Positions 24,298 to 41,983 of a stretch of DNA of 64,000 nucleotides are shown here, one piece after another. How positions within the stretch are numbered: position 1 is the first letter of the stretch; each line of letters starts with the position of its first letter. The stretch is from Promethearchaeota archaeon (GTDB lineage Archaea > Asgardarchaeota > Lokiarchaeia > Sigyniarchaeales > SOKP01), in assembly GCA_011364925.1 (NCBI GenBank), contig RDOA01000017.1:1-64000 (forward strand), in the 5' to 3' direction. The translations under genes and the position numbers were made by a program. The notes beneath the pieces were generated by a model. It was given only the letters and a program-made list of their open reading frames with translations. It ran no database searches and was not told where the DNA came from.

Positions 24298-25005
24298 ATG
24301 ACTGAAGCATTATACATGAAAGATTCCTACTTAAAACAATGGGACGCTCAAGTCGTTTCTGTGAAGGACGACAAATATATTGTCCTAGATAAAACCGCGT
24401 TCTACCCTAAAGGAGGAGGTCAACCATGGGACGAGGGCTATATCGTTAAAAACGGCGAAAAATTCAATGTTGTCTATGTAGGAAAGTTCTCGGGCGAAAT
24501 AAGTCACGAAGTAGATAAACCTGGATTAAAAGAAGGGGATACTGTGTCGTGCGAACTCGATTGGGATCGGCGATATACCTACATGCGATACCATACAGCT
24601 TGTCATCTCGTCTCAAATATCCTATATCGACGAGCTAACGCGAAAATCACGGGCAATCAAATTGAATTAGATAAAGCTCGAATGGATTTCTCTATGGAAG
24701 ATTACTCACCAGAAAAGTTGCAGGCATTTGTAGACGAATCAAACGAAATCATTAAAACAAACCTTCCAGTTACAATTGATACAATGTCTCGAGCAGCAGT
24801 CTTAGAAGAACCCGAACTCGCACGATTAGCTATGGGGTTACCTAAAAATTTACAAGAGTTCCGCATAGTAAAGATTGGCGATATCGATAAACAGGTCGAC
24901 GGTGGAACCCATATTAACAATCTTAACGAGATTGGGGAAATTGAGATGACCAAAACGGTAAACAAAGGTAAGAATAATAGGAGATTGTATTTCGTTATTA
25001 AATAA
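24298..25005 (+). CDS. alaX: Alanyl-tRNA editing protein AlaX-M
   Basis: LYMKDSY, FYPKGGGQPWD, MRYHTACHL (HxxxH), DGGTH, KGKNNRRLY. Confidence 0.93.
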   Translation: MTEALYMKDSYLKQWDAQVVSVKDDKYIVLDKTAFYPKGGGQPWDEGYIVKNGEKFNVVYVGKFSGEISHEVDKPGLKEGDTVSCELDWDRRYTYMRYHTACHLVSNILYRRANAKITGNQIELDKARMDFSMEDYSPEKLQAFVDESNEIIKTNLPVTIDTMSRAAVLEEPELARLAMGLPKNLQEFRIVKIGDIDKQVDGGTHINNLNEIGEIEMTKTVNKGKNNRRLYFVIK

Positions 25006-26554: not shown

Positions 26555-28321
26555 TTGAATATGAGTACAGAGCATAAAACACCAAAGAAGAGAGATTCAT
26601 CAAAAAAAACCCTTAAAACTAAATTAAAAGAAATAAGAAAACCTCTTTTTGCTGGTAGTATAATCATTGTAGCAGCAGTAACTGGAATTATTGGAGGGTT
26701 TTTTTTTATTAATCAACCTCAAATTGTGGAGAAAGTTTTGATTTGTGGGACTCAAGACAATGTATTTAATTTAGATCCACTTTACGACCCTCATCTCCCC
26801 AGTATCAGATTAATTGACCAAGTTGCTGAAGGATTATTTGACTATGATCAATCTAAAGCAGAAACTCCGCTAATATATAACTTGGCAACAGAAGGGGAAT
26901 GGAGTCCCGACTACTTAAATTTTACATGCTCGCTAAGAAGAGGAGTTCAATTTCACGATGGAACTCCGTTTAATGCTGAAGCTGTTAAATGGAGTTTTGA
27001 CCGAATAAACAGATTTATGGAAATAATGCCTTACGATATAATCCGATACTGGGTTTATATGTATACTAATTCTGACGGTCACCCAATTATTAATAGAACC
27101 GAGGTTTTGGATACCTACACTGTAAGATTTGTATTAAATAAACCTTATATTCCTTTTCCAGATTTATTAACCGCTCGGTCATCCTATATATTATCACCAA
27201 CATCTACCCCATCTGATGAATTTATACCTTTAAATACTAACAACCTTATCGGAACTGGACCTTATAAACTATATTCTTGTATTAGTAATGTCCATGATAC
27301 TCAATACTATTATTGCTTCAATTCAACCTTAAAAGCTAATCGAAACTATTGGAATGGAGAACCGTATTTTGATAAAATAATATTTATACCATTGAGGTAT
27401 CTTAATCTCACGAAAGCGCTGGAGTCTGAACAACTTTCTTTTTCATTTATATTTGATCCTGAAACTCTTCAGATGTTTAAAGACACACCTGGGATGACGC
27501 TTCTTAATAAAACGGACTTAACTGTGGCGTTCATTGGAATGAATAACGATGTAATGAATGTAACGATGAGAAAAGCTATCTCGTATGCATTTAATTACAC
27601 TTATTATTTTGATGTATTAAATTACGGTGAACAATTTGTGGAGAGAGCAAGATCACCGCTTTCAAAAGAAATGCGTTACTCAAACTGGGAAGCTTTCAGT
27701 ATTCCTTACTATAATATTACATTAGCTAGACAGACGTTAATCAATGCAAATTGGAATGGAACAACTGGTTTAACCGCAAATGATGATACAAGCCCAGGAA
27801 ATCCTTGGGAACTAAAAGCTCTCAGTAATTTCCCTTTAGCAACTTATAATATTACATATCCTAATGATAGTTGGAGGATGGGAAATTATTCGCTTGAAAT
27901 AGCTAGAAATCTAAGACAAATCGGAGTAAAAGGGATACTTGATGCTGTCCCTCGATTGGAATGGTATTATAAAGGGTTGGCAGGTGAACTCGACTTCGAT
28001 TTAACAGGATATTATCCTACACTTAACGATCCTGTGGATATGCTAAATCCACAATATTCTAATAAAGGCGATGGTTCTTTTAATATAATTAATTTTAACG
28101 ATACTTTAGTTCAGCAATGGTTAGATGCTGCGATCGAAGAACCTAATACGATAGCTAGAAAGCAATATTACTATAATATTCAAGAACGCTTGATAGAAGA
28201 GCTTTATCCTTGTGTTTGGTTGGGGTCCCCAATAACAAATACAGCTTGGGATTCCAGGATAAAAGGGATGTCGTTTGAAGGAATATTTATAAAAATCCTA
28301 TATAAGCATGGGTATTACTAA
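26555..28321 (+). CDS. ABC-type peptide/nickel solute-binding protein (family 5), N-terminal TM anchor
   Basis: NLDP, EGLFDY, LRRGVQFHDGTPFNAEAVKWSFDR, IGTGPY, MRKAISYAFN. Confidence 0.9.
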   Translation: MNMSTEHKTPKKRDSSKKTLKTKLKEIRKPLFAGSIIIVAAVTGIIGGFFFINQPQIVEKVLICGTQDNVFNLDPLYDPHLPSIRLIDQVAEGLFDYDQSKAETPLIYNLATEGEWSPDYLNFTCSLRRGVQFHDGTPFNAEAVKWSFDRINRFMEIMPYDIIRYWVYMYTNSDGHPIINRTEVLDTYTVRFVLNKPYIPFPDLLTARSSYILSPTSTPSDEFIPLNTNNLIGTGPYKLYSCISNVHDTQYYYCFNSTLKANRNYWNGEPYFDKIIFIPLRYLNLTKALESEQLSFSFIFDPETLQMFKDTPGMTLLNKTDLTVAFIGMNNDVMNVTMRKAISYAFNYTYYFDVLNYGEQFVERARSPLSKEMRYSNWEAFSIPYYNITLARQTLINANWNGTTGLTANDDTSPGNPWELKALSNFPLATYNITYPNDSWRMGNYSLEIARNLRQIGVKGILDAVPRLEWYYKGLAGELDFDLTGYYPTLNDPVDMLNPQYSNKGDGSFNIINFNDTLVQQWLDAAIEEPNTIARKQYYYNIQERLIEELYPCVWLGSPITNTAWDSRIKGMSFEGIFIKILYKHGYY

Positions 28322-31089: not shown

Positions 31090-31986
31090 TTATTCCTGTG
31101 CCTTAGTTCTTTTCTTTTCTTTTCTTCTTTCTAAGAACGATTCTTTTTCTTTTGCATCAACGCGCTTTAGGTACATCTCTTCATATCTTTCTCTAAGCGC
31201 TTCCACATCTTCAACTTGACCAAGTTTATCTTGTAAACCATCTTCAAAGAAATAATTTCTTTTCAATTCTTTTGCCGGAACTCCAACGTAGATATATCCT
31301 TCGTCAAGTGTTTGATCTACCACAGTAACAGAATTAGCTGCTAGCACGCTCCTTCTTTTAATGTGTGTGCCAGGCATTATAATTGCGTGTGAACCTATTC
31401 TCACTTCGTCGTCTATTCTTGTTTTCTTTACGATAAGAAGATTTCCGACTATCATAGAAGACATTACGATCGCTCCTTGGCCCACAACCACGTTTTTACC
31501 GAATTCTATGAATTCTGTATCCACCCAACCTTCAAAAAGTGAGTTTGATATTCTCGTTTTCACTCCAAACATTTTATATAGGAAGTTGTTCATGAAGGGG
31601 AAGGGAAATCGATGACTAAGCCAAAACGGCCATTTTTTAATGACATTCCTTATACACCAATAACGAAAATCTTTGTCGCTTGGATGCCGTAAAAACACTC
31701 CAGTTCTGGGTTTGTGAATGGCGTTTACGATCCAATAAAATAATTTAGCGATAAACGTTGCGCTGAAGACGAGCGTAATATACATAGGAATAACTAACAA
31801 CGGCAAGAACGTATAGAAGTGAATCGGCCGTTCATAATTCCAGAGAAATTGCCAATAGACCCATAATTCAAGAAAAATAGGAATAAAACTAATCCATACG
31901 ATGGCAAAATAAAAAGTTATATATCTTTTTTTTAGTAATATTGTTGGAACAAGCGGTCCAATTCGCATGCTACTAGGTACTGACAT
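31090..31986 (-). CDS. 2TM + left-handed beta-helix (hexapeptide) acyltransferase-like subunit, class C (set 2)
   Basis: Two TM, HKPRTGVF, DFRYW, FGKNVVVGQGAIV, VRIGSHAIIMPG, YVGVPA; close paralog of 36233..37129. Confidence 0.8.
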   Translation of the reverse strand: MSVPSSMRIGPLVPTILLKKRYITFYFAIVWISFIPIFLELWVYWQFLWNYERPIHFYTFLPLLVIPMYITLVFSATFIAKLFYWIVNAIHKPRTGVFLRHPSDKDFRYWCIRNVIKKWPFWLSHRFPFPFMNNFLYKMFGVKTRISNSLFEGWVDTEFIEFGKNVVVGQGAIVMSSMIVGNLLIVKKTRIDDEVRIGSHAIIMPGTHIKRRSVLAANSVTVVDQTLDEGYIYVGVPAKELKRNYFFEDGLQDKLGQVEDVEALRERYEEMYLKRVDAKEKESFLERRKEKKRTKAQE

Positions 31987-31987
31987 T

Positions 31988-33889
31988 TTACTCTTCTGAA
32001 TCTCCTGTTTTTACGAATTTTCGTTTATCTTCGTCAACATGGACTTCGGTTATCTCCTCAACTTTAGTTTCGTCGTCAACGCTCCGTCTAGTTATGACAT
32101 CCCTTCTTGTCGAACCGTATTTATTTTTCTTAAGCTTAATCGCTGGAATTCCGAAGTATATCCATTCTGGTTCAAGAACTTGATTGTACGTCGTAGTACT
32201 CAATGCGCCAATGAAACCGTCGTGTTCAATTATCGTACCAGGGGCTATTGTTGATTGTCCCCCGACTAACACAAAATCATCGAAGATAACTCTCTTAATT
32301 ATCAAGTATTTGCCTACTACCATTGAGGACATTACTGTTGCCCCCTGTCCAACTAAACAATTTCTCCCAAAATCCACAAATTCGGCATCACACCATGCAT
32401 CGTTAAGGTGACTAGTAAAATCCATCCGTATACCAAACCATCTAAACGCTATCACATCTAACCAAGGTAATGGCGTGTTCCTAAAAAACCAGAGAGCAAT
32501 TTTTTTTAACTCTGTTCTCATCATCCAAAATTCGTAGTCTTTATCTCCAATCTCAGCAATAAATACACCCTCACGAGGTTGATGGAGCAAGTTGAGAAAA
32601 ATTAAGAATAATTTGCTAAAAAACAAAACTGCAAAGACGAAAATATAAATCATCGCAAACAGAGCTACAGGGAGAAAGAAAACTGTCGTGAGGTTAAGCC
32701 ATCTCGTATTCTCGTACCAAAACATCGCGACCAATAATCCACTTAGCCAAAAAATGGGAAAGTATACTGCTAAAAACTTTAAATTCACCCTACTAATGGC
32801 ACTACTAGTTGTAAAATCAATAGCGAGATCTTCTTTAGTTAAGCTGTTTATATCAATAGGTTCTTCCACTTTATGCTCTTCTTCGTTGCTCTCGGTGGTT
32901 TCTTGCGATTCTTTCACTTTTTCCTCTTTATTTTTTTTAGACTTCTTCTCTTTTGATTTTAACTTCTTTTCCTTTATTTGGGAAAGGTATTCTTCCATAT
33001 TTTCATTTATTTCTAATTGTTCAGGACTTAAGCCTATGAATTCATTTATCTTCTTTTTGAAAATTTTTCTTGCGGGCATTCCAAAATAATATCCAAAGTT
33101 TTTCTCTCCCTCTTTCCCTATTGTAACATGCTTTTGCACCGATGCTAAGGGCAACAAAAAGCTATTATCATGAACTTCAGTTCCAGGGCCTAAGGAATTA
33201 AAGGCAGCAAAAGTAACGTTATCTCCTGCTTTTACTTCAAAATAGGAGATATTTCCGAAAATGCCTTCGACAACATGAGAAGAAAGTGACGAATTGACCC
33301 CAAAGTAGCAGTTTTTTCCGACAGTCATAAATTTATCGTTAACTAACGACTCTTCGATGGTAGTTCCTTTTCCTATTTTGGCCGATTTCACGAAATTATA
33401 GAACCACTTTGATAACCAGGGCAATGCTCCTTTAGTAAATATACTTTTACCATATTTTAAAACAAAGGATCTTATGTGGTAAAAATCAGCCGCTTTAGAT
33501 TTGATGTTTCGAGGAATTATTCCGGATTTCGATGGTGAAATTTTTTCAGTGATCCCCCAAATAATTCTAGTAGAAAGCCCTATGAAAAACATGCGGACTA
33601 AATAAGCGAGAATAAGAACCAACGGCATTAGAAATAGAGCTAATAATGGGTTTAGTTCAGTAAAAATTGCTAGAAAAGTAGGGGCATCTAAGAAATATGT
33701 TCGAAAGATAATTACAAAATAGGAAATGAGGATAAAACTCGGACCGATCCACGATATATAATAAATAATAAAGAATAAGATCATGTATAATACATATTGC
33801 ATTCTAACTTCTTCTCTTACGGGTTCTTCTTCAGAATCCTCAGACTCTTCAGATTCAGTGAAATTCTCCGCTTTCCCCTCTATAGTCAC
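31988..33889 (-). CDS. Fused class A + class B 2TM-LbH acyltransferase-like protein (set 2)
   Basis: N-half matches 38057..38974 and 39013..39921 (GIIPRNI, SHVVEGIFGNI). C-half matches 37126..38049 (IDFTTSSAI, SHLNDAWCDAEFV). Lys/Glu-rich linker between them. Confidence 0.82.
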   Translation of the reverse strand: MTIEGKAENFTESEESEDSEEEPVREEVRMQYVLYMILFFIIYYISWIGPSFILISYFVIIFRTYFLDAPTFLAIFTELNPLLALFLMPLVLILAYLVRMFFIGLSTRIIWGITEKISPSKSGIIPRNIKSKAADFYHIRSFVLKYGKSIFTKGALPWLSKWFYNFVKSAKIGKGTTIEESLVNDKFMTVGKNCYFGVNSSLSSHVVEGIFGNISYFEVKAGDNVTFAAFNSLGPGTEVHDNSFLLPLASVQKHVTIGKEGEKNFGYYFGMPARKIFKKKINEFIGLSPEQLEINENMEEYLSQIKEKKLKSKEKKSKKNKEEKVKESQETTESNEEEHKVEEPIDINSLTKEDLAIDFTTSSAISRVNLKFLAVYFPIFWLSGLLVAMFWYENTRWLNLTTVFFLPVALFAMIYIFVFAVLFFSKLFLIFLNLLHQPREGVFIAEIGDKDYEFWMMRTELKKIALWFFRNTPLPWLDVIAFRWFGIRMDFTSHLNDAWCDAEFVDFGRNCLVGQGATVMSSMVVGKYLIIKRVIFDDFVLVGGQSTIAPGTIIEHDGFIGALSTTTYNQVLEPEWIYFGIPAIKLKKNKYGSTRRDVITRRSVDDETKVEEITEVHVDEDKRKFVKTGDSEE

Positions 33890-34015
33890 GATTTATCAAA
33901 TCAAAAATTATATACGATTAAACTATAATTAAGATAAGAAATTACATTTCTAGTATAAAAGATTTGTTCTTTCATTTGTAAAATCGAGTTTAAAACAGAG
34001 AGGCTACTATTAACG

Positions 34016-34414
34016 ATGAAAAATTTATGCGAAGGCTGTGGAAACTGTTGTCACGAAACTGAAATGATTCTCTCAGCTCGAGATATAGCCCGTATTATGA
34101 AAAATGGTCCAAAAAGCTTGAGACCAAGCGATTTTATTATGAAAACCGAAGATAGATTGTTTCAGTTAAAAAATGTTAATGGCCATTGCGTTTTTTTTGA
34201 TATAAGGTCTCAACTTTGTAAAATCTATGAATTTAGACCTCAGGGATGTCGATTTTACCCTTTAACGCTCGATTTAGATACGAAGATGTGTGTTTTAGAT
34301 GGTGATTGTCCAAGACCAGAATTGTTTTATCCTAATAGTAAATCTCGCATTAATACCTGTAAAAGCCTTATAAAATTTTTAGAAGATGAAGTGTTATTTA
34401 CTAAACTACGATAA
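34016..34414 (+). CDS. YkgJ family CxxCxxCC cysteine-cluster protein
   Basis: CEGCGNCC, CVFF, CKIYEFRPQGCRFYP. Confidence 0.9.
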   Translation: MKNLCEGCGNCCHETEMILSARDIARIMKNGPKSLRPSDFIMKTEDRLFQLKNVNGHCVFFDIRSQLCKIYEFRPQGCRFYPLTLDLDTKMCVLDGDCPRPELFYPNSKSRINTCKSLIKFLEDEVLFTKLR

Positions 34415-35408
34415 CTGCTTTTATGAAATCTCGACTGGTTTCATATGCAGCAAAAGCTTCCTTAATGTTTTCAAGGTTAAATGTTTTTGAAATCAAATTT
34501 TTAACCTTAATTTCTCCAGAACTTAATCCCTCAATTGCTTTGTTAAATGGTCCACATCTGCTACTATATAGAGTAATTTCTCTGACCACTATATCAGTAA
34601 GATTTATTGGAGTATTTCGTCCATGAGTGCTCTTAATATGAATTTTCCCTCGGGTTTTACATGAAGCAACGATGTTCGTAAGAACTTCAGGATTACCCGT
34701 AGTATCCGCAACAATATCCGCTCCAAGCTTGTCAGTCAAACCTTTGATTTCGTCAACGATATTTTCAGTTTCAAAGTAGTTTATTAAATGTTTTACTCCA
34801 TACTTTTGAGCTATGGCAAGCTTATTATCTGAACTATCAACAGCAATTACCTCCAATCCTTTGGATAAGGCGACTTGAGTAAGTAATAAACCTAATTTTC
34901 CGAGCCCGAAAATCGCAATAATTTTATCGTCATCTCCTAAGGGCATCATTTCAAACGTTTGATACGCTGCTGCTAAAGGTTCTATAAAAGTTGCGTCTTT
35001 GTAAGAAATGTTTCTCGGCAATTCGTGAAGCAGATATGGCTCAAGAACTATATATTCAGCGAAAGAACCGTCAATATCTATGCCCAAAGCTTTACGCGAT
35101 ACACATTGGGAATATATTTTTCGTTGACAGTAATAACAGTTAAAATCGATGTTTGTATTAATTTCGGATGTAATCTGTTTACCTTCCCAGTTTGAGTCAA
35201 CACTTCTGCCAACTTCTATAACCTCGCCAGCAAACTCGTGTCCTAAAATAAGCGGAGTTGGAGTTGGTAAATCCCCTTTGACTATCGCGATATCAGTCCC
35301 ACATATTCCTGACGCTTTAATTTGAATTAAAACTTGAGAATCTTCAAGTTTAGGAATCGGAACTTCCTTAATAGAGATATCTTGTCCGTCGAATACAGCC
35401 GCTTTCAT
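34401..35408 (-). CDS. Zinc-dependent medium-chain alcohol dehydrogenase
   Basis: GICGTD, LGHEFAG, CYYCQ..C, IEPLAAA, GLGKLG, SSRCGPF. Confidence 0.9.
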   Translation of the reverse strand: MKAAVFDGQDISIKEVPIPKLEDSQVLIQIKASGICGTDIAIVKGDLPTPTPLILGHEFAGEVIEVGRSVDSNWEGKQITSEINTNIDFNCYYCQRKIYSQCVSRKALGIDIDGSFAEYIVLEPYLLHELPRNISYKDATFIEPLAAAYQTFEMMPLGDDDKIIAIFGLGKLGLLLTQVALSKGLEVIAVDSSDNKLAIAQKYGVKHLINYFETENIVDEIKGLTDKLGADIVADTTGNPEVLTNIVASCKTRGKIHIKSTHGRNTPINLTDIVVREITLYSSRCGPFNKAIEGLSSGEIKVKNLISKTFNLENIKEAFAAYETSRDFIKAVIVV

Positions 35409-35441
35409 ATTTAACTCAATATTTTTAATTTTTACAATTTA

Positions 35442-36230
35442 TTACTTAAGAAAATAAAACTCAGTTCTTCTATCCTCAATAATATTATTGTACTTGTTGA
35501 TGTTTTTATTTCTCGCGTGGGTAACATCAATTTCAACGAAATCGACATAAACCTTATCTGGTGGTGCAGATGAAAGCACATCGCCATTAAACGAGGTGAT
35601 TTGACTCCCACCTGTAAATGTAAAATTATCTTCACCTCTCACTTCGTTTCCAATCCGATTTGATGTCACAGCAAAAACGCGATTTACTAAGCAATGGTTC
35701 GTCATCGCTCTTTGGCAGTAAGGAAGGACTAAATTCGCAGGATGAGCAATAATATCTGCTCCAAGGAGAGCAAGGCTCCGAATTGTTTCAGGAAAAAACC
35801 AATCGAAACAGATCATAATTCCTATTTTTACACCTTTTAGGTCGTAAGTTTTTAACGGTTTGTTTCCCGACGAGAACCAGAGCTTTTCTTTATAGTATAA
35901 ATGGATTTTCCGATAAATGCCAACAACCTCGTCATCAGAAACTATTAATGAGGAATTATAGATATGATCGCCATCTTTTTCTGCAAAACCAGCGACTACA
36001 ATTGCACCCGTTTTTCGAGCTAGTTCGATTAAAAACTGAGAGGTGTCACCGTCTTTTTTTTCACTTAATGCTATTGCTTCGTTTTTAGAAATAAATGTAT
36101 ACCCTGTAGCAAACAATTCGGGTAAAATAATTAAATCCGCTTTAGTTTTCCCTATAAACTTGTAAACCTGTTCGAAATTTTTGTGTTTTTCCCCAAATAT
36201 AGGAGATGTTTGCACGTATCCAACTTTCAC
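35442..36230 (-). CDS. Carbon-nitrogen hydrolase (nitrilase superfamily amidase)
   Basis: Glu-Lys-Cys triad: LPELF, YRKIHL, ICFDW. Confidence 0.92.
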   Translation of the reverse strand: MKVGYVQTSPIFGEKHKNFEQVYKFIGKTKADLIILPELFATGYTFISKNEAIALSEKKDGDTSQFLIELARKTGAIVVAGFAEKDGDHIYNSSLIVSDDEVVGIYRKIHLYYKEKLWFSSGNKPLKTYDLKGVKIGIMICFDWFFPETIRSLALLGADIIAHPANLVLPYCQRAMTNHCLVNRVFAVTSNRIGNEVRGEDNFTFTGGSQITSFNGDVLSSAPPDKVYVDFVEIDVTHARNKNINKYNNIIEDRRTEFYFLK

Positions 36231-36232
36231 TT

Positions 36233-37129
36233 TTACTCATCTTCTATTTCGGATTCGTCTTCCTTTTCTTCTTGGTCCAGAAATTGCCTTTCTTTCACAA
36301 CTCTTGCTACGCGCGCTTCGTCGTATTTTTTTAGTAGTAGATCGATATTCCCGATTGATTTGTTTAGTTTTTCAAAAGGAATGTCTTCGAAAAACCTGTT
36401 TCTTTTAAACTTTTTAGCTGGGCTTCCGTTATATATCCAACCTTCTTCTAGTTCTTGACCCACCATTGTAGAAGACCAGGTATTTAAAATACAATTTTTT
36501 CCGATGTGAGTTCCTGGCATGATTATAACGTGGGTTCCTACCCTTACATTCTCTTCAATGACGGTTTTCCTAATGATTAGTAAGTTCCCTACTATAACAG
36601 AAGACTGGACTATAGCACCTTGACCTATAACAACGTTTTTACCAAATTCCATGAATTCTGTATCAACCCAGCCCTCAAAAAGAGAATTTGAGAATTTAGT
36701 TTTGACACCAAGAACTCTAAAACATATATTATCTAAAAATGGGAACGGAAATTTATGAGCAAGCCACGTAGGCCATTTCTTAAGCGTATTTCGCAGACTC
36801 CAATAGCGATAGTCCTTGTCCGAAGGATCTCTTAGAAAGGTTCCTTCTCGTGGTTTGTGAAATATGTTAATGATCAAGAGGAAAATCTTGGTGAAAATAA
36901 TAGCAACGAAAACGGTCGAAACATAAATGACGAACAAAACCAAGGGTAAAAATATATAAAAGTGGATTGGTCTAACTTCGTACCATAACCATTGCCAATA
37001 CCACCACATTTCTAATATTGCCGGAAGTAGAGTCAACCATATAAGGAAGACGTACAAAATCAAATATTTCTTCTTAACTAACACGCTGGCACAGAAAGGT
37101 CCAACCCTCATTGAGTTTGGTACGCTCAT
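36233..37129 (-). CDS. 2TM-LbH acyltransferase-like subunit, class C (set 1)
   Basis: HKPREGTF, DYRYW, FGKNVVIGQGAIV, YNGSPA; ATGA overlap with the upstream gene. Confidence 0.8.
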   Translation of the reverse strand: MSVPNSMRVGPFCASVLVKKKYLILYVFLIWLTLLPAILEMWWYWQWLWYEVRPIHFYIFLPLVLFVIYVSTVFVAIIFTKIFLLIINIFHKPREGTFLRDPSDKDYRYWSLRNTLKKWPTWLAHKFPFPFLDNICFRVLGVKTKFSNSLFEGWVDTEFMEFGKNVVIGQGAIVQSSVIVGNLLIIRKTVIEENVRVGTHVIIMPGTHIGKNCILNTWSSTMVGQELEEGWIYNGSPAKKFKRNRFFEDIPFEKLNKSIGNIDLLLKKYDEARVARVVKERQFLDQEEKEDESEIEDE

Positions 37130-38049
37130 TTCTTAGCACTTCTCCTTCTATGTTTAAGTAAATGTTTTTTATCTTCATCGATAACAACTTCGTGTTCAAT
37201 TTCAACCTTTTTTGCCTCATCCACATCAACTTTTTGAATGATGTCTCTTCGCGTTTCAGCGTATTGGTTAAGTTTTAGTTTTCTTGCGGGTATTCCAGAG
37301 TAGATCCAACCATCTTCTAAATCTTGGTTAAGTGTAGTAACTGACACAGCTCCTAACATTGTGTCTTCACCGAGGTGAGTTCCAGGTGCAATCGTGCTTT
37401 GTCCTCCAACAAGAGCATAATCGTCAAATCTAATCTTTTTAATAATCAAATAATTACCCACGATCATGGAACTCATAATAACTGCTCCCTGACCGATTGT
37501 AACGTTCTTTCCAAAGGAAACGAACTCAGCATCGCACCACGCATCGTTTAAGTGGCTAGAAAAGTCCATTTTGATTCCGAACCAACGAAAAGCGATGACG
37601 TCAATCCACGGTAAAGGCCAATTTCTTAGTAACCACAACACAATCTTTTTTATTTCCGTTCTGAGCCTCCAAAACTCAAAGTCCATGTTTTTCTTCTCTG
37701 CTCTAAAGATGCCCTCCTTAGGTGCGTGAATTAAGTTAATGAAAATTAACAGCATTTTACTGAAAAATAAACAGCTAATGATAAATAAAAAGCTAAAACC
37801 TAGTAATAATAGCGGGAGAAATAGCAATTTTATTGCCCAAGGCACTGGACCGATTACGTAACCGTACCAAAACGAGGCGACCACAAGGCCACTGAACCAA
37901 AATATTGGAATATAAACTAATAGGAACTTCAAGCCGACTTTATTTATTGCTGAACTTGTAGTAAAGTCGATAACAAAATCAGAATCGTCTTCTTCCTTTA
38001 AATCTTTTTCTTCTTCATTTTCAATTTCTTCACTCATTTCATTTCTCAC
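37126..38049 (-). CDS. 2TM-LbH acyltransferase-like subunit, class B (set 1)
   Basis: IDFTTSSAI, PKEGIF, FEFWRLR, FGKNVTIGQGAVI, YSGIPA. Confidence 0.8.
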   Translation of the reverse strand: MRNEMSEEIENEEEKDLKEEDDSDFVIDFTTSSAINKVGLKFLLVYIPIFWFSGLVVASFWYGYVIGPVPWAIKLLFLPLLLLGFSFLFIISCLFFSKMLLIFINLIHAPKEGIFRAEKKNMDFEFWRLRTEIKKIVLWLLRNWPLPWIDVIAFRWFGIKMDFSSHLNDAWCDAEFVSFGKNVTIGQGAVIMSSMIVGNYLIIKKIRFDDYALVGGQSTIAPGTHLGEDTMLGAVSVTTLNQDLEDGWIYSGIPARKLKLNQYAETRRDIIQKVDVDEAKKVEIEHEVVIDEDKKHLLKHRRRSAKK

Positions 38050-38056
38050 CTTAACT

Positions 38057-38974
38057 TTACTTTATCTGCTTTCTCTTCATTTCTTCTTTTTTTATCCTTT
38101 CTAATTGTTCTTGTTCTTGTTTTATTCTTAGAGCTTCAGAGCGTTGTAAGTCCTCTTCTGTAATTTTTAAGTAGTCTAATATTTTTTTCTTGAATATGCG
38201 ACGCAGGGGCATACCATAGTAATAGCTATTACCTTTTGTCGTATTATATTTTGTAGCAGCTGCCATTGGGAGTAAGTAGGAACTATGTTTTAACTCACAT
38301 CCGGGCGCGATTATATTAAATCCACCAAGCGTTGAATTTTCTCCAACCGTGACCTTAAAATAAATAATATTGCCAAAAATCCCTTCAACCAAATGTGCCG
38401 CTAAGGCAGAATTAACTCCCATATATACGTTTCTTTTTACATATACGTTCCTATCACTACTAACGGTTTCTTCCATTGTCGACCCTTTTTCGATAACGCT
38501 GGCACCAACGACATTAAAAAACCAATTAGAGAGCCATGGAAAAATTCCTTTCATGAACGCGTTTTTTCCATATTTTATCATGAAGCTTCGGTAATGATAA
38601 AAATTCAGCGTTTTTGATTGGATGTTGCGGGGTATGATGCCATCTTTTGTAGGACTCTTTCTCTCAGTATATCTCCAAAATATTCGTGTGATAATTCCAA
38701 TAAAATACTTTTGAATGAGATAAGCGCAAAGAAAAACGAGAGGAAAGGTAAAAAAAACGAGCAGATGGTCGAAACTCGTAAATATTACAACAAGGTCTCC
38801 CACTTCCAAGAACAGTGGTTTAAATACTAAAAATAGGTAGAACATTAAGCCGATTACAGGTATTAGATACGAGCCACAATAAATACATAAGAAGATAGCA
38901 AAATATTTATGATATTGAAATTGAACGTTTTCTCTGTAAATATCGTATCCAGAGTCTACTGATTCATCAATCAT
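38057..38974 (-). CDS. 2TM-LbH acyltransferase-like subunit, class A (set 1, copy 2)
   Basis: SPTKDGIIPRNI, GVNSALAAHLVEGIFGNI, YYGMP. Confidence 0.8.
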   Translation of the reverse strand: MIDESVDSGYDIYRENVQFQYHKYFAIFLCIYCGSYLIPVIGLMFYLFLVFKPLFLEVGDLVVIFTSFDHLLVFFTFPLVFLCAYLIQKYFIGIITRIFWRYTERKSPTKDGIIPRNIQSKTLNFYHYRSFMIKYGKNAFMKGIFPWLSNWFFNVVGASVIEKGSTMEETVSSDRNVYVKRNVYMGVNSALAAHLVEGIFGNIIYFKVTVGENSTLGGFNIIAPGCELKHSSYLLPMAAATKYNTTKGNSYYYGMPLRRIFKKKILDYLKITEEDLQRSEALRIKQEQEQLERIKKEEMKRKQIK

Positions 38975-39012
38975 ACCTATTTCATCTCTTCTTCTCTGTT
39001 TTTTTTCAAATT

Positions 39013-39921
39013 CTATTCTTGATTGCTCCTATTTCCTTTTTTATTTTCTTGTTTTATTCTTAATTCTTCAGCACGGTTTAGATCTTCTTCAGAAACCTTC
39101 AAATAATCCATGGTTTTTTTCTTGAAGATGCGACGTAAAGGCATGCCATAATAATAGCTGTCCCCTTTAGTTTTGTTATGTTTAGTGGCAGCTGCCATAG
39201 GTAAAAGATACGAGTTGTCGCTTAGAAGATTTCCCGGCCCAATCGTGTTAAACCCTGCCAATGTAACATTATCTCCCAGTACCACTTTGAAGTAAGAAAT
39301 GTTGCCAAATATTCCTTCTACAACATGCGACGCTAAAGCAGAATTAACCCCGACGTAGCAATTCTCTCCAATTTGCACATTCTTATCGGTCACCACCGAT
39401 TCCTCTAAAGTAGCTCCCCTTTTAATAACGCTGGTGCCTACAAAATTAAAAAACCAATTTGCGAACCAAGGAAACACACTTTTCATAAATGTATTTTTCC
39501 CATACTTTATCATGAACGATTTTATATGGTAATAATTAACAGCTTTGGAGGCAATATTACGCGGTATCACTCCATCTTTCGTCGGACTTCTTCTCTCCGC
39601 AAAACTCCAAAACATTCGAGTAATTAAACCAACGATAAATAAACGAGACAAATAACTAAAAACAATAACTAAAGGTAAAGCGAAAAAAGCCAATAATGAT
39701 TCTAAGTGAGTAAATAAAGCAACGAAACCGTTTACTAATAAAACATATGGAACGAAAATATATACAATGTAGAACATAAAAATCATTCCAGAGATGACGT
39801 AAGATAAATAGTAAATAATAAAGAAGATCATTAAATACCAATGAAACTGAAGCTTAATTTCTTCTTTTGGTACTTCTTTATCAGAATCCTCTTTTTCAGA
39901 AGCTTCACTTTCATCTAGCAC
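39013..39921 (-). CDS. 2TM-LbH acyltransferase-like subunit, class A (set 1, copy 1)
   Basis: SPTKDGVIPRNI, IGENCYVGVNSALASHVVEGIFGNI, YYGMP. Confidence 0.8.
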   Translation of the reverse strand: MLDESEASEKEDSDKEVPKEEIKLQFHWYLMIFFIIYYLSYVISGMIFMFYIVYIFVPYVLLVNGFVALFTHLESLLAFFALPLVIVFSYLSRLFIVGLITRMFWSFAERRSPTKDGVIPRNIASKAVNYYHIKSFMIKYGKNTFMKSVFPWFANWFFNFVGTSVIKRGATLEESVVTDKNVQIGENCYVGVNSALASHVVEGIFGNISYFKVVLGDNVTLAGFNTIGPGNLLSDNSYLLPMAAATKHNKTKGDSYYYGMPLRRIFKKKTMDYLKVSEEDLNRAEELRIKQENKKGNRSNQE

Positions 39922-40096: not shown

Positions 40097-41983
40097 TTAA
40101 TCACTTTCGATAAATCTTCTTATTTCTTTTATTAAAACTATAGTTGTTAAAGAAATCAGTCCAAGTATCAAAAATATATCGTATCCAAAAATAAGTTCTG
40201 GTGGTGTTAAATCGTTGAATTCGATATATACAGGATAAAACCATTTTATTTGTAAAGGATTAGGGATCCATCCATGGACATTAGTTCTCCAGGCGCTATA
40301 ATAATTATCTGAGAAAAGTAGAATAGCTGGCAAATATTCCTCTACCATAAGTCTTTGAATTTCATTGTATATATGTTTTCTTATTGTAGGATCAGTTTCT
40401 GTGAGACCAGCCTCCATCAATGCTTGTACATCAGGTTCATAGAAATTACCACCATTTATATCTGATAGATTACTCCACAATGGATTTATAAAATTTTCTG
40501 GGTCGTAGTATTCTGGTAACCATCCCAGCATATACATGTTTAATCTATGCCTATTAAGAGTTATACTATCAAGCCAATCGAGAAATGTGACATATAAAAC
40601 CTCTATTTTAACTCCTATATATTCCGTATCAGAAGCTAATCTATTAGCAATAAGAGGTATTTTTGGATTACTAGTTATCAATGTTGTGAAGTTATAATGT
40701 TCAAGAGGAGCTGGCCCATTTGCGAGATTTAACCACGCAGAATCAGGACTATCATCCGTTATACCAACCCCTGCAAGTATTGGTCCATAATATGGATCAT
40801 CAAGGAGGAAATGTCTTGCTAATTCACGGTCAAATTGAGGAGCATTTAAGCTGTAGTTAGCGTATGAGATACCGAAAGGAATATAAGTCGGTAATCTAAC
40901 AGCTAATCCTTTATAAGCCACATCCAATATGGAAGAATAGTTCAAACACCATGAAATTGCTTTTCTCATTGTTAAATTAATAAGAAGATAATTAAAGATA
41001 ACCCATGTACTGGCTAGGGTATTTCCAATATAACTTATTTCGATATTAGGATCAGCTTGGAATTGAGGTATGAAGCTTGGATCAATTTTATCTATAATGG
41101 CAACAGGACCCCATGCTAGAAGATCAATTAAAATCTTATCATCTGGTACAATCAAATATATTAACGATTCAAGTTGAGTAGTACCTGTATTATCAGGAGT
41201 ACCCCAATAGTCCGGATTGGAAGCGAACTTTACCTCAACGTCTGGTATAAATCCTATATATTTGAATGGCCCAGAACCTATCAATGTATCATTCAATTGA
41301 TAATAATCAAGAGGAGGTGTTGATTTTGGCGACAATATACCAGAACCAAATTGAGCTAAAAGAGATAGGAATGATGCTTTTGGCGCATTTAATGTAATTC
41401 TAATGGAATAAAGACTGAGGACATCAGTTTTGTTAATAATTCGTTTTCCGTCGGATTGTATATAAAGAGATTGTAATTTAGTTGGTTGTATATGTGCAGG
41501 AAGTGGGACATTAAATGGTACTGGCAGATCTGAATTACCTGAATAATTTATGAAATAACATAATCTATCGAAACTCCATTTAACGGCTGTTGCGTTCAAT
41601 GTAGCGTTATCATGGAATACAATCCCTTGTCTGAGCGTAATGATATATTCAGTTCCATTAGACGAAATTGAAGGGAAACTTGATGCTAACCATGGAATAA
41701 GGGGAAGGGTAGGGTCCGAGAGATTAAACTGATAGAGATGTTCAACAACTTGATTAATTACATCATTTGAAGACCAATCGTAGGCATTGTGAGGATCTAA
41801 GTCCACAATGTTTCCTTGTTCTGTACCAAAAATAAGTGATTGGGCTGATGGTGCAGATGATTTAAGAAAAGATTTATCATAATACTCTTGATATTTCTGA
41901 ATTCTTCTGGTTAATATACTGGATATTACTAAATTACATCCCAACAGTAAGAAAACTATTAATACCTTAATTTCTCTTTTCAT
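40097..41983 (-). CDS. ABC-type family 5 solute-binding protein with C-terminal Loki-CTERM-like anchor
   Basis: DLDPH, LRQGIVFHD..LNATAVKWSFDR, IGSGPF, MRKAIS; C-terminus IFGYDIFLILGLISLTTIVLIKEIRR. Confidence 0.88.
   Translation of the reverse strand: MKREIKVLIVFLLLGCNLVISSILTRRIQKYQEYYDKSFLKSSAPSAQSLIFGTEQGNIVDLDPHNAYDWSSNDVINQVVEHLYQFNLSDPTLPLIPWLASSFPSISSNGTEYIITLRQGIVFHDNATLNATAVKWSFDRLCYFINYSGNSDLPVPFNVPLPAHIQPTKLQSLYIQSDGKRIINKTDVLSLYSIRITLNAPKASFLSLLAQFGSGILSPKSTPPLDYYQLNDTLIGSGPFKYIGFIPDVEVKFASNPDYWGTPDNTGTTQLESLIYLIVPDDKILIDLLAWGPVAIIDKIDPSFIPQFQADPNIEISYIGNTLASTWVIFNYLLINLTMRKAISWCLNYSSILDVAYKGLAVRLPTYIPFGISYANYSLNAPQFDRELARHFLLDDPYYGPILAGVGITDDSPDSAWLNLANGPAPLEHYNFTTLITSNPKIPLIANRLASDTEYIGVKIEVLYVTFLDWLDSITLNRHRLNMYMLGWLPEYYDPENFINPLWSNLSDINGGNFYEPDVQALMEAGLTETDPTIRKHIYNEIQRLMVEEYLPAILLFSDNYYSAWRTNVHGWIPNPLQIKWFYPVYIEFNDLTPPELIFGYDIFLILGLISLTTIVLIKEIRRFIESD

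Follow-up and report, generated by a model that had tools for sequence, protein, structure and literature searches.

Two paralogous, putative heterotrimeric membrane acyltransferases related to the Pls/PosA polymerisation domain in an Asgard archaeon

The epsilon-poly-L-lysine and delta-poly-L-ornithine synthetases, Pls and PosA, are single-module nonribosomal peptide synthetases (NRPSs) with an adenylation and a carrier domain, and the membrane part of Pls is divided into the units TM1-2/C1, TM3-4/C2 and TM5-6/C3 (TM, transmembrane helix). The published PosA model describes each unit as a TM hairpin followed by a strand, two helices and a left-handed beta-helix (LbH) (PMC10522769). Here, we have analyzed a window of 64,000 nucleotides from a Loki-type Asgard archaeon of the Promethearchaeota (contig RDOA01000017.1, positions 1 to 64,000; assembly GCA_011364925.1), in which the region 31090-39921 encodes proteins made of units with this layout. 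An earlier note, based on the sequence alone, had compared them with a stand-alone Pls C1-C2-C3 region. On the basis of the current results, we propose with moderate confidence that the region encodes two paralogous versions of a membrane-embedded, ring-shaped A-B-C heterotrimeric acyltransferase, which has one active site and is homologous to the Pls polymerisation domain.

The minus strand of this region contains eight closely spaced genes (g1 to g8; Table 1), six of which encode seven units of two TM helices plus an LbH domain. Set 1 comprises A, A', B and C as separate genes (g1 to g4), and set 2 an A-B fusion and C (g7 and g8). Distances between neighbors are very short (38 bp for g1-g2, 7 bp for g2-g3, a 4-bp overlap for g3/g4, 2 bp for g4-g5 and 1 bp for g7-g8). 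Thus, the count of six co-oriented genes with seven units given in the earlier note was confirmed by coordinates of the open reading frames (ORFs), hydrophobic helices and the AlphaFold2 strand pattern, and its description of a tightly packed set 1 (gaps below 40 bp or overlap) and a fused set 2 with C also agreed with the ORF coordinates. It should be noted that g5 and g6, which are co-oriented and sit between the two sets, had been left uncounted. All-against-all blastp of the seven units reproduced the proposed division into three classes: pairwise identity was 46-58% within class A (g1, g2 and the N-terminal half of g7), 58% within class B (g3 and the C-terminal half of g7) and 53-55% within class C (g4 and g8), whereas it was ∼39% between B and C and 20-24% between A and either of them (E 1e-8 to 1e-14). 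Judging from its sequence, g2 is a recent tandem duplicate of g1.

All seven units begin with two hydrophobic helices, and the AlphaFold2 secondary structure of g7 has two long helices, a strand, two helices and a beta-helix in each unit. Lys and Arg are abundant in the segments that precede TM1 and follow TM2, and the loop between the two helices is rich in Trp and Tyr and nearly uncharged; this positive-inside pattern places the predicted soluble LbH domains on the cytoplasmic side. Hexapeptide repeats forming a left-handed beta-helix, the hallmark of the LbH superfamily, were supported by weak Pfam scores (PF00132 above the cut-off of 27 bits in g4, g7 and g8; 25.2 bits in g1 and g3; 13.5 bits in g2), by the AlphaFold2 strand pattern and by Foldseek, which matched MAT/GAT with a probability of 1.00. 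The best PDB matches by both sequence and structure were soluble LbH enzymes, and the LbH parts also showed sequence similarity to the CA/CAL subunits of complex I in the PDB searches; no solved Pls-like structure was found in PDB by sequence, profile or Foldseek searches. The YvoF family model NF058585 (cut-off 300 bits) had no match in g2 and scored 26-39 bits for the other five proteins, a level of generic LbH similarity.

With regard to Pls and PosA, the model of their terminal domain (TIGR02353) was the top NCBIfam match of every B and C unit, with E values from 3e-10 to 3e-14 (3.3e-10 for g3, 3.1e-14 for g4 and 1.2e-10 for g8), and the alignment of g8 runs from TM2 to the end of the LbH. 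Each protein scored 12-52 bits and covered only one unit of this 695-position, three-unit model, compared with 580-618 bits for the controls P0381, P0380 and P0377. The proteins share with TIGR02353 members the TM-TM-strand-two helices-LbH layout and the presence of a single His-bearing unit. On the other hand, the three units are not found in one polypeptide here but are split as 1+1+1(+1) and 2+1, and none of the window proteins carries adenylation and carrier domains according to Pfam and NCBIfam. In the reverse direction, a B/C profile matched genuine Pls-family NRPSs (P0381, P0380 and P0333, which have an adenylation domain and 471-618 bits with TIGR02353) with E values of 1e-24 to 1e-30 in three stretches each, and the best stretch spans profile positions 16-255, including TM, linker and LbH. 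HHalign comparison of the class alignments with those of the Pls units gave probabilities of 97.6-99.6% in all nine pairs (best values 9e-25 for C-C1 and 1e-23 for B-C1), and the aligned part takes in, beyond the beta-helix, the KPxG after TM2 and the following RxWW (Arg/Trp) helix. The profile similarity expected by the earlier note is therefore strong and extends into the juxtamembrane region. These comparisons give good support to a genuine homology between the Asgard units and the Pls/PosA polymerisation domain. The proposed resemblance to C1-C2-C3 held with respect to homology and the three-unit layout, but A, B and C have no one-to-one counterparts and the triads are probably independent: orthology of A/B/C with C1/C2/C3 was rejected because all three classes score best against C1 and the unit tree separates the two triads.

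The tree mentioned above is a quick maximum-likelihood tree of 86 units with a midpoint root, several long branches and support from the Shimodaira-Hasegawa-like approximate likelihood-ratio test (SH-aLRT) only. Pls C1, C2 and C3 fell into one clade (SH-aLRT 92). Class A, in which g1 and g2 were sisters (97), grouped with A-like single-unit proteins (99), one of them from the cultured Ca. Lokiarchaeum ossiferum (UYP45917.1), and B and C formed a group with the pair of genes from a third locus of this genome (87), the A and B/C groups being adjacent (94). This topology suggests, and we hold the view loosely, that the Asgard and Pls triads arose independently from single-unit ancestors.

Motif search showed that His-x-x-Glu is confined to class A among the seven units, as had been stated before: g1 and g7 have SHVVEG and g2 has AHLVEG, and B and C carry SSMIVG, SSMVVG or SSVIVG, with Ser at the position of His. 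Both His199 and Glu202 (g1 numbering) are invariant in a 17-sequence alignment of class A, together with several other polar residues; in g7, SHVVEG lies at residues 204-209 and His205 is invariant. B and C are nevertheless the most conserved units, with 60-70% identity across metagenome-assembled genomes (MAGs). In the HHalign alignments, SHxVEG of class A lines up with the motif QTHLFEDR of Pls unit C3, which reads so in 7 out of 10 C3 sequences and keeps its His in all ten, whereas C1 and C2 lack this His. Most of the distant single-unit relatives (∼220-320 aa) have H-x-x-E/D at the matching position, and thus His-x-x-Glu looks ancestral to the family. Among 18 three-unit proteins examined (Pls-family members, a second bacterial stand-alone family and an Asgard triple fusion), 17 had exactly one unit with His, the exception being P0329 with His in all three.

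The distribution of the system was investigated in other Asgard genomes. At E ≤0.001, Asgard MAGs contained 685 homologous proteins for C and 419 for the A-B fusion, and most of the 120 matches listed for the latter were ∼600-645 aa long. From 14 genomes of the same order, 18 additional loci (13-20 kb each) were retrieved, and every ORF in them was assigned to a class. The A-B-C order, whether encoded by three genes or by an A-B fusion and a separate C gene, was kept in 16 out of 16 loci of the window's own family, which come from 13 other genomes (G144 and G040 give several loci each); co-occurrence of A, B and C in the same order, named beforehand as a test on which the idea could fail, was thus observed throughout this family. 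Both the split and the fused set recur across genera, and some loci contain arrays of the type AB, AB, AB+C. In a sample of 200 genomes of the phylum, the strong form was confined to this archaeal order, in which all 43 genomes had strong matches (40 of 40 in the window's family and 3 of 3 in the sister family) and the number of units scored in a genome reached 12 or more. Matches in another five families were all weaker (E 1e-19 to 1e-29); where they were examined, in five genomes belonging to four of these families, they proved to be scattered single-unit genes. The remaining families of the sample had no matches at the same threshold. Stop codons inside genome-search matches are probably gene boundaries and not a sign of recoding, since such matches span the borders of separately called genes. 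Literature searches for an Asgard description of the system or for TIGR02353 found nothing relevant.

Additional fusions bear on how the units may be assembled. Searching the B/C unit profile against 1.84 billion representatives revealed several C-A fusions; such a fusion is also found at G144:C10, where a B/C-like gene follows. Moreover, P0241 from a Promethearchaeota MAG is a natural triple fusion of 797 aa with the domain order C, A, B. The A-B, C-A and C-A-B fusions all keep the same cyclic order, as would be expected for units that are neighbors in one and the same ring. AlphaFold2 gave a pLDDT (predicted local distance difference test) of 72.7 and a pTM (predicted template modeling score) of 0.66 for the A-B fusion g7, and 80.6 and 0.82, respectively, for P0241; the latter pTM, for a three-unit chain with disordered linkers, points to a confident mutual placement of the units. 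P0241 was folded from alignment A3; another alignment (A4), to which single C proteins had been added, misplaced A-B fusions and was discarded.

Taken together, these results strongly suggest a heterotrimer that has one active site only. In the proposed machine, each subunit would provide a two-helix membrane hairpin (six TM helices in total) and a cytoplasmic LbH, and the three beta-helices would pack as in ordinary LbH trimers. Since only subunit A keeps His-x-x-Glu, the single active site of the ring would lie at an interface to which A contributes, and B and C, as degenerate subunits, would form a scaffold that completes both the ring and the bundle of membrane helices. Set 1 would then offer alternative A subunits (A and A'), and set 2 has A joined to B. 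The His/Glu pair of A may act as a general base, with an amine or hydroxyl acceptor attacking a cytoplasmic acyl thioester. Because the genome lacks a carrier protein, the donor would most likely be acyl-CoA, and the six-helix bundle could retain the acceptor or product or let it pass through. Such a machine would probably be an independent triplication of the same single-unit ancestor that gave rise to C1-C2-C3 of Pls/PosA.

Several observations weigh against this proposal. The TIGR02353 scores of B and C (39-52 bits) are far under the cut-off of 423.1 bits and the model also matches weakly in 14 out of 14 control genomes, so that this match alone is insufficient. The His of class A may not coincide with the canonical catalytic His of soluble LbH acetyltransferases. 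Some genomes have A-B fusions with no C adjacent, loci of the sister family (G089 and G162) show only an A-like and a C-like gene, and the third locus of the same genome (L001 6824-8428; G000:C112:38823-40427) has only two unit types. Set 1 has four subunits for three positions; considering also the A-B fusions that lack an adjacent C, the stoichiometry may vary. The ring assembly rests on the fusions and on a global pTM, the donor and acceptor are purely inferential, and no partner gene is conserved beyond close genera.

The genome (rated 100% complete with 4.2% contamination) has no PP-binding (carrier) domain. The earlier note had reported that neither an adenylation nor a carrier domain is present in the window, and for the carrier domain this absence thus extends to the whole genome. 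A carrier-tethered thioester donor of the Pls type is unlikely for this reason. Stand-alone AMP-binding enzymes, on the other hand, number 15 in this genome. Neighboring genes were compared among 18 sequence sets, including the window. Members of the carbon-nitrogen (CN) hydrolase family occurred in 6 sets, and in L014, L016 and L026 directly after the C gene on the same strand; g5 is possibly a co-transcribed accessory gene. A Zn-dehydrogenase was present in 8 sets and a YkgJ-type protein in 9, both conserved only in close genera, and most of this recurrence was read as shared synteny. The YkgJ, Zn-dehydrogenase, CN-hydrolase, AlaX-like, GH3-like and other genes were rejected as conserved partners, as they were gone from more distant loci, and so was an ADP-forming acyl-CoA-synthetase-like gene, which lies near three sets, two of them being orthologous loci. 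A 551-aa protein lies between two LbH sets in five related loci (L017 8168-9823 and its orthologues in L016, L018, L019 and L026). It had no Pfam, NCBIfam or PDB match, and some of its nearest ESM-Atlas clusters (scores 0.94-0.96) contain GH3 or AMP-binding domains. In the present genome, the 551-aa GH3-like gene is unlinked, on another contig (G000:C80:7661-9268). Two unannotated neighbors of ∼550 aa are not related to each other.

Table 1 Genes of the region 31090-39921 of the window
Gene	Product	Position	Strand	Features
g1	Class A unit, 302 aa, candidate catalytic subunit	39013-39921	minus	SHVVEG at residues 198-203 (His199, Glu202)
g2	Class A' unit, 305 aa	38057-38974	minus	AHLVEG at residues 193-198; 58% identity to g1, its tandem paralogue
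g3	Class B unit, 307 aa	37126-38049	minus	SSMIVG replaces His; conserved HxPxEG after TM2
g4	Class C unit, 298 aa	36233-37129	minus	SSVIVG replaces His; 4-bp overlap with g3
g5	Carbon-nitrogen hydrolase, 262 aa	35442-36230	minus	PF00795, 2.4e-40; motif strings PELF, YRKIHL, MICFD
g6	Zn-dependent alcohol/threonine-dehydrogenase-like, 335 aa	34401-35408	minus	Conserved in close genera only
	CxxCxxCC (YkgJ-type) protein, 132 aa	34016-34414	plus	PF03692, 6e-15; divergent from g7
g7	A-B fusion, 633 aa	31988-33889	minus	A unit ∼1-330, K/E-rich linker, B unit ∼331-633
g8	Class C unit of set 2, 298 aa	31090-31986	minus	Follows g7

Alternatively, the ring could be a carrier-independent polyamide polymerase and exporter, in which, much as in the Pls domain, an activated amino acid is added repeatedly to a free chain that is extruded through the six-helix bundle. 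Its donor would then be delivered in trans, for instance as an aminoacyl-tRNA, or as an adenylate (aminoacyl- or acyl-) or CoA ester made by a stand-alone ligase. Those relatives that have been studied are all polymerases with the same single-His three-unit layout, and the stand-alone AMP-binding enzymes, the 551-aa GH3/AMP-binding-like protein between sets of five related loci and the adjacent amidase gene (the CN-hydrolase) would all fit; in Streptomyces, pls adjoins the gene of a polymer-degrading enzyme. However, the genome lacks a carrier domain, its GH3-like gene is on another contig, the tree puts A, B and C with single-unit acyltransferase-like proteins outside the Pls clade and, to our knowledge, no polymer has been described from these archaea. 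We therefore consider the polymerase unlikely and favor acyl-CoA-dependent transfer to a membrane-side acceptor, mainly in view of the missing carrier and the tree position. The more specific idea that the ring makes a novel polyamide or other acyl-linked surface polymer, fed by stand-alone ligases and with A subunits setting monomer specificity, appears decidedly unlikely.

Two other explanations concern the assembly itself. LbH enzymes are normally homotrimers, and A, B and C might be tandem paralogues that each form a homotrimer with its own substrate, much as single-unit relatives occur singly and scattered in other Asgard families and as some A-B fusions have no C next to them. Such homotrimers seem quite improbable to us, given that B and C have lost His-x-x-Glu and yet are the units most conserved across MAGs, that the genes keep a strict order and are coupled in translation, that a homotrimeric ring of a single class is impossible for A-B, C-A and C-A-B fusions, and that the triple fusion is predicted with such a high pTM. 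A ring without enzyme function, serving as a structural or regulatory membrane scaffold, would have a parallel in the gamma-carbonic-anhydrase-like LbH trimer of mitochondrial complex I. The degeneration of two of the three units, the sequence similarity of the LbH parts to CA/CAL and the lack of a conserved metabolic partner agree with a scaffold of this kind, but the invariant residues of class A (His199, Glu202 and several further polar ones) and the retention of several A paralogues per genome, which suggests diversified specificity, make it very improbable indeed. Thus, the A-B-C heterotrimeric acyltransferase remains the reading that we prefer.

Some further observations were made on the loci examined. 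The third locus of this genome encodes a B-like unit of 287 aa, which keeps a His motif (SHLIYHD, reminiscent of THLFED in Pls C3), and then a C-like unit of 245 aa, with no class A gene; a 531-aa metallophosphoesterase and a ThiI-like protein follow, and the genes upstream encode an ADP-forming acyl-CoA-synthetase-like protein of 482 aa and an MFS_2 transporter. In the window, the ORF at 24298-25005 (plus strand) clustered by blastp with an AlaX-like protein (C-terminal part of tRNA-synt_2c plus tRNA_SAD; the Pfam assignment was made on the L015 orthologue), whose orthologues come immediately after the C gene of the fused set in L014, L015 and L019 and ∼6 kb away from it in the window. Two family-5 solute-binding proteins (PF00496) are encoded at 26555-28321 (plus strand) and 40097-41983 (minus strand); the latter, which has a hydrophobic C-terminus, is a same-strand neighbor of g1 at a distance of 175 bp upstream, an arrangement that is not conserved in more distant loci. 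A heliorhodopsin (PF18761, 4.4e-85) was found between two LbH sets at L016 10706-11545 (minus strand), and blastp clustering placed a homologue in L026.

We know of no established catalytic residue in the polymerisation domain of Pls and PosA. The presence of a single His-x-x-Glu/Asp unit, together with the occurrence of the motif in most of the distant single-unit relatives, provides a concrete catalytic hypothesis for both systems. Asgard archaea are the closest prokaryotic relatives of eukaryotes, and a membrane enzyme found lineage-wide in multiple copies could bear on their envelope or lipid chemistry. In evolutionary terms, the family seems to be a clear example of homotrimers turning repeatedly into heterotrimers or pseudo-trimers with one active site. 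If the polymerase reading were true, Pls-type membrane polymerisation chemistry would have evolved twice and could run without NRPS parts.

Among known systems, soluble CoA-dependent LbH acetyltransferases (maltose/galactoside O-acetyltransferase, YvoF, AntD and LpxD) have the same beta-helix fold but are homotrimers without TM hairpin or juxtamembrane helices, and match only the C-terminal ∼60-110 residues. The single-unit proteins with two TM helices and an LbH domain, present in both archaea and bacteria, have the same architecture and keep His-x-x-Glu, but they are scattered single genes without A/B/C specialization and presumably form homotrimers with three active sites. Three-unit forms lacking adenylation and carrier domains are not confined to Asgard archaea and exist in bacteria too. 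These stand-alone proteins of ∼650-960 aa (P0377, P0301, P0307, the P0326 cluster, which includes a member from Elusimicrobiota, and P0316) have all units on one chain, with the His unit second or third and only one His unit in nearly all of them. P0377 is a true TIGR02353 member (580 bits), whereas the others score ∼168-184 bits. One of them, P0316 (960 aa, from a metagenome; 168 bits), has a short-chain dehydrogenase (SDR) domain fused to its three-unit TM and LbH region, and thus combines the family's units with a redox partner.

Pls and PosA are like the Asgard system in having the same unit, three units per machine and one unit with His-x-x-Glu/Asp, which is class A in Asgard and C3 in Pls. 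They differ in being single polypeptides, whereas two to four polypeptides make up the Asgard machine, and in having adenylation and carrier domains, which are absent from the Asgard window, the carrier also from the genome. In addition, the Asgard system is archaeal and present as several paralogous sets per genome, unlike Pls and PosA. Thus, it appears to represent a machine of the Pls/PosA type in separable pieces.

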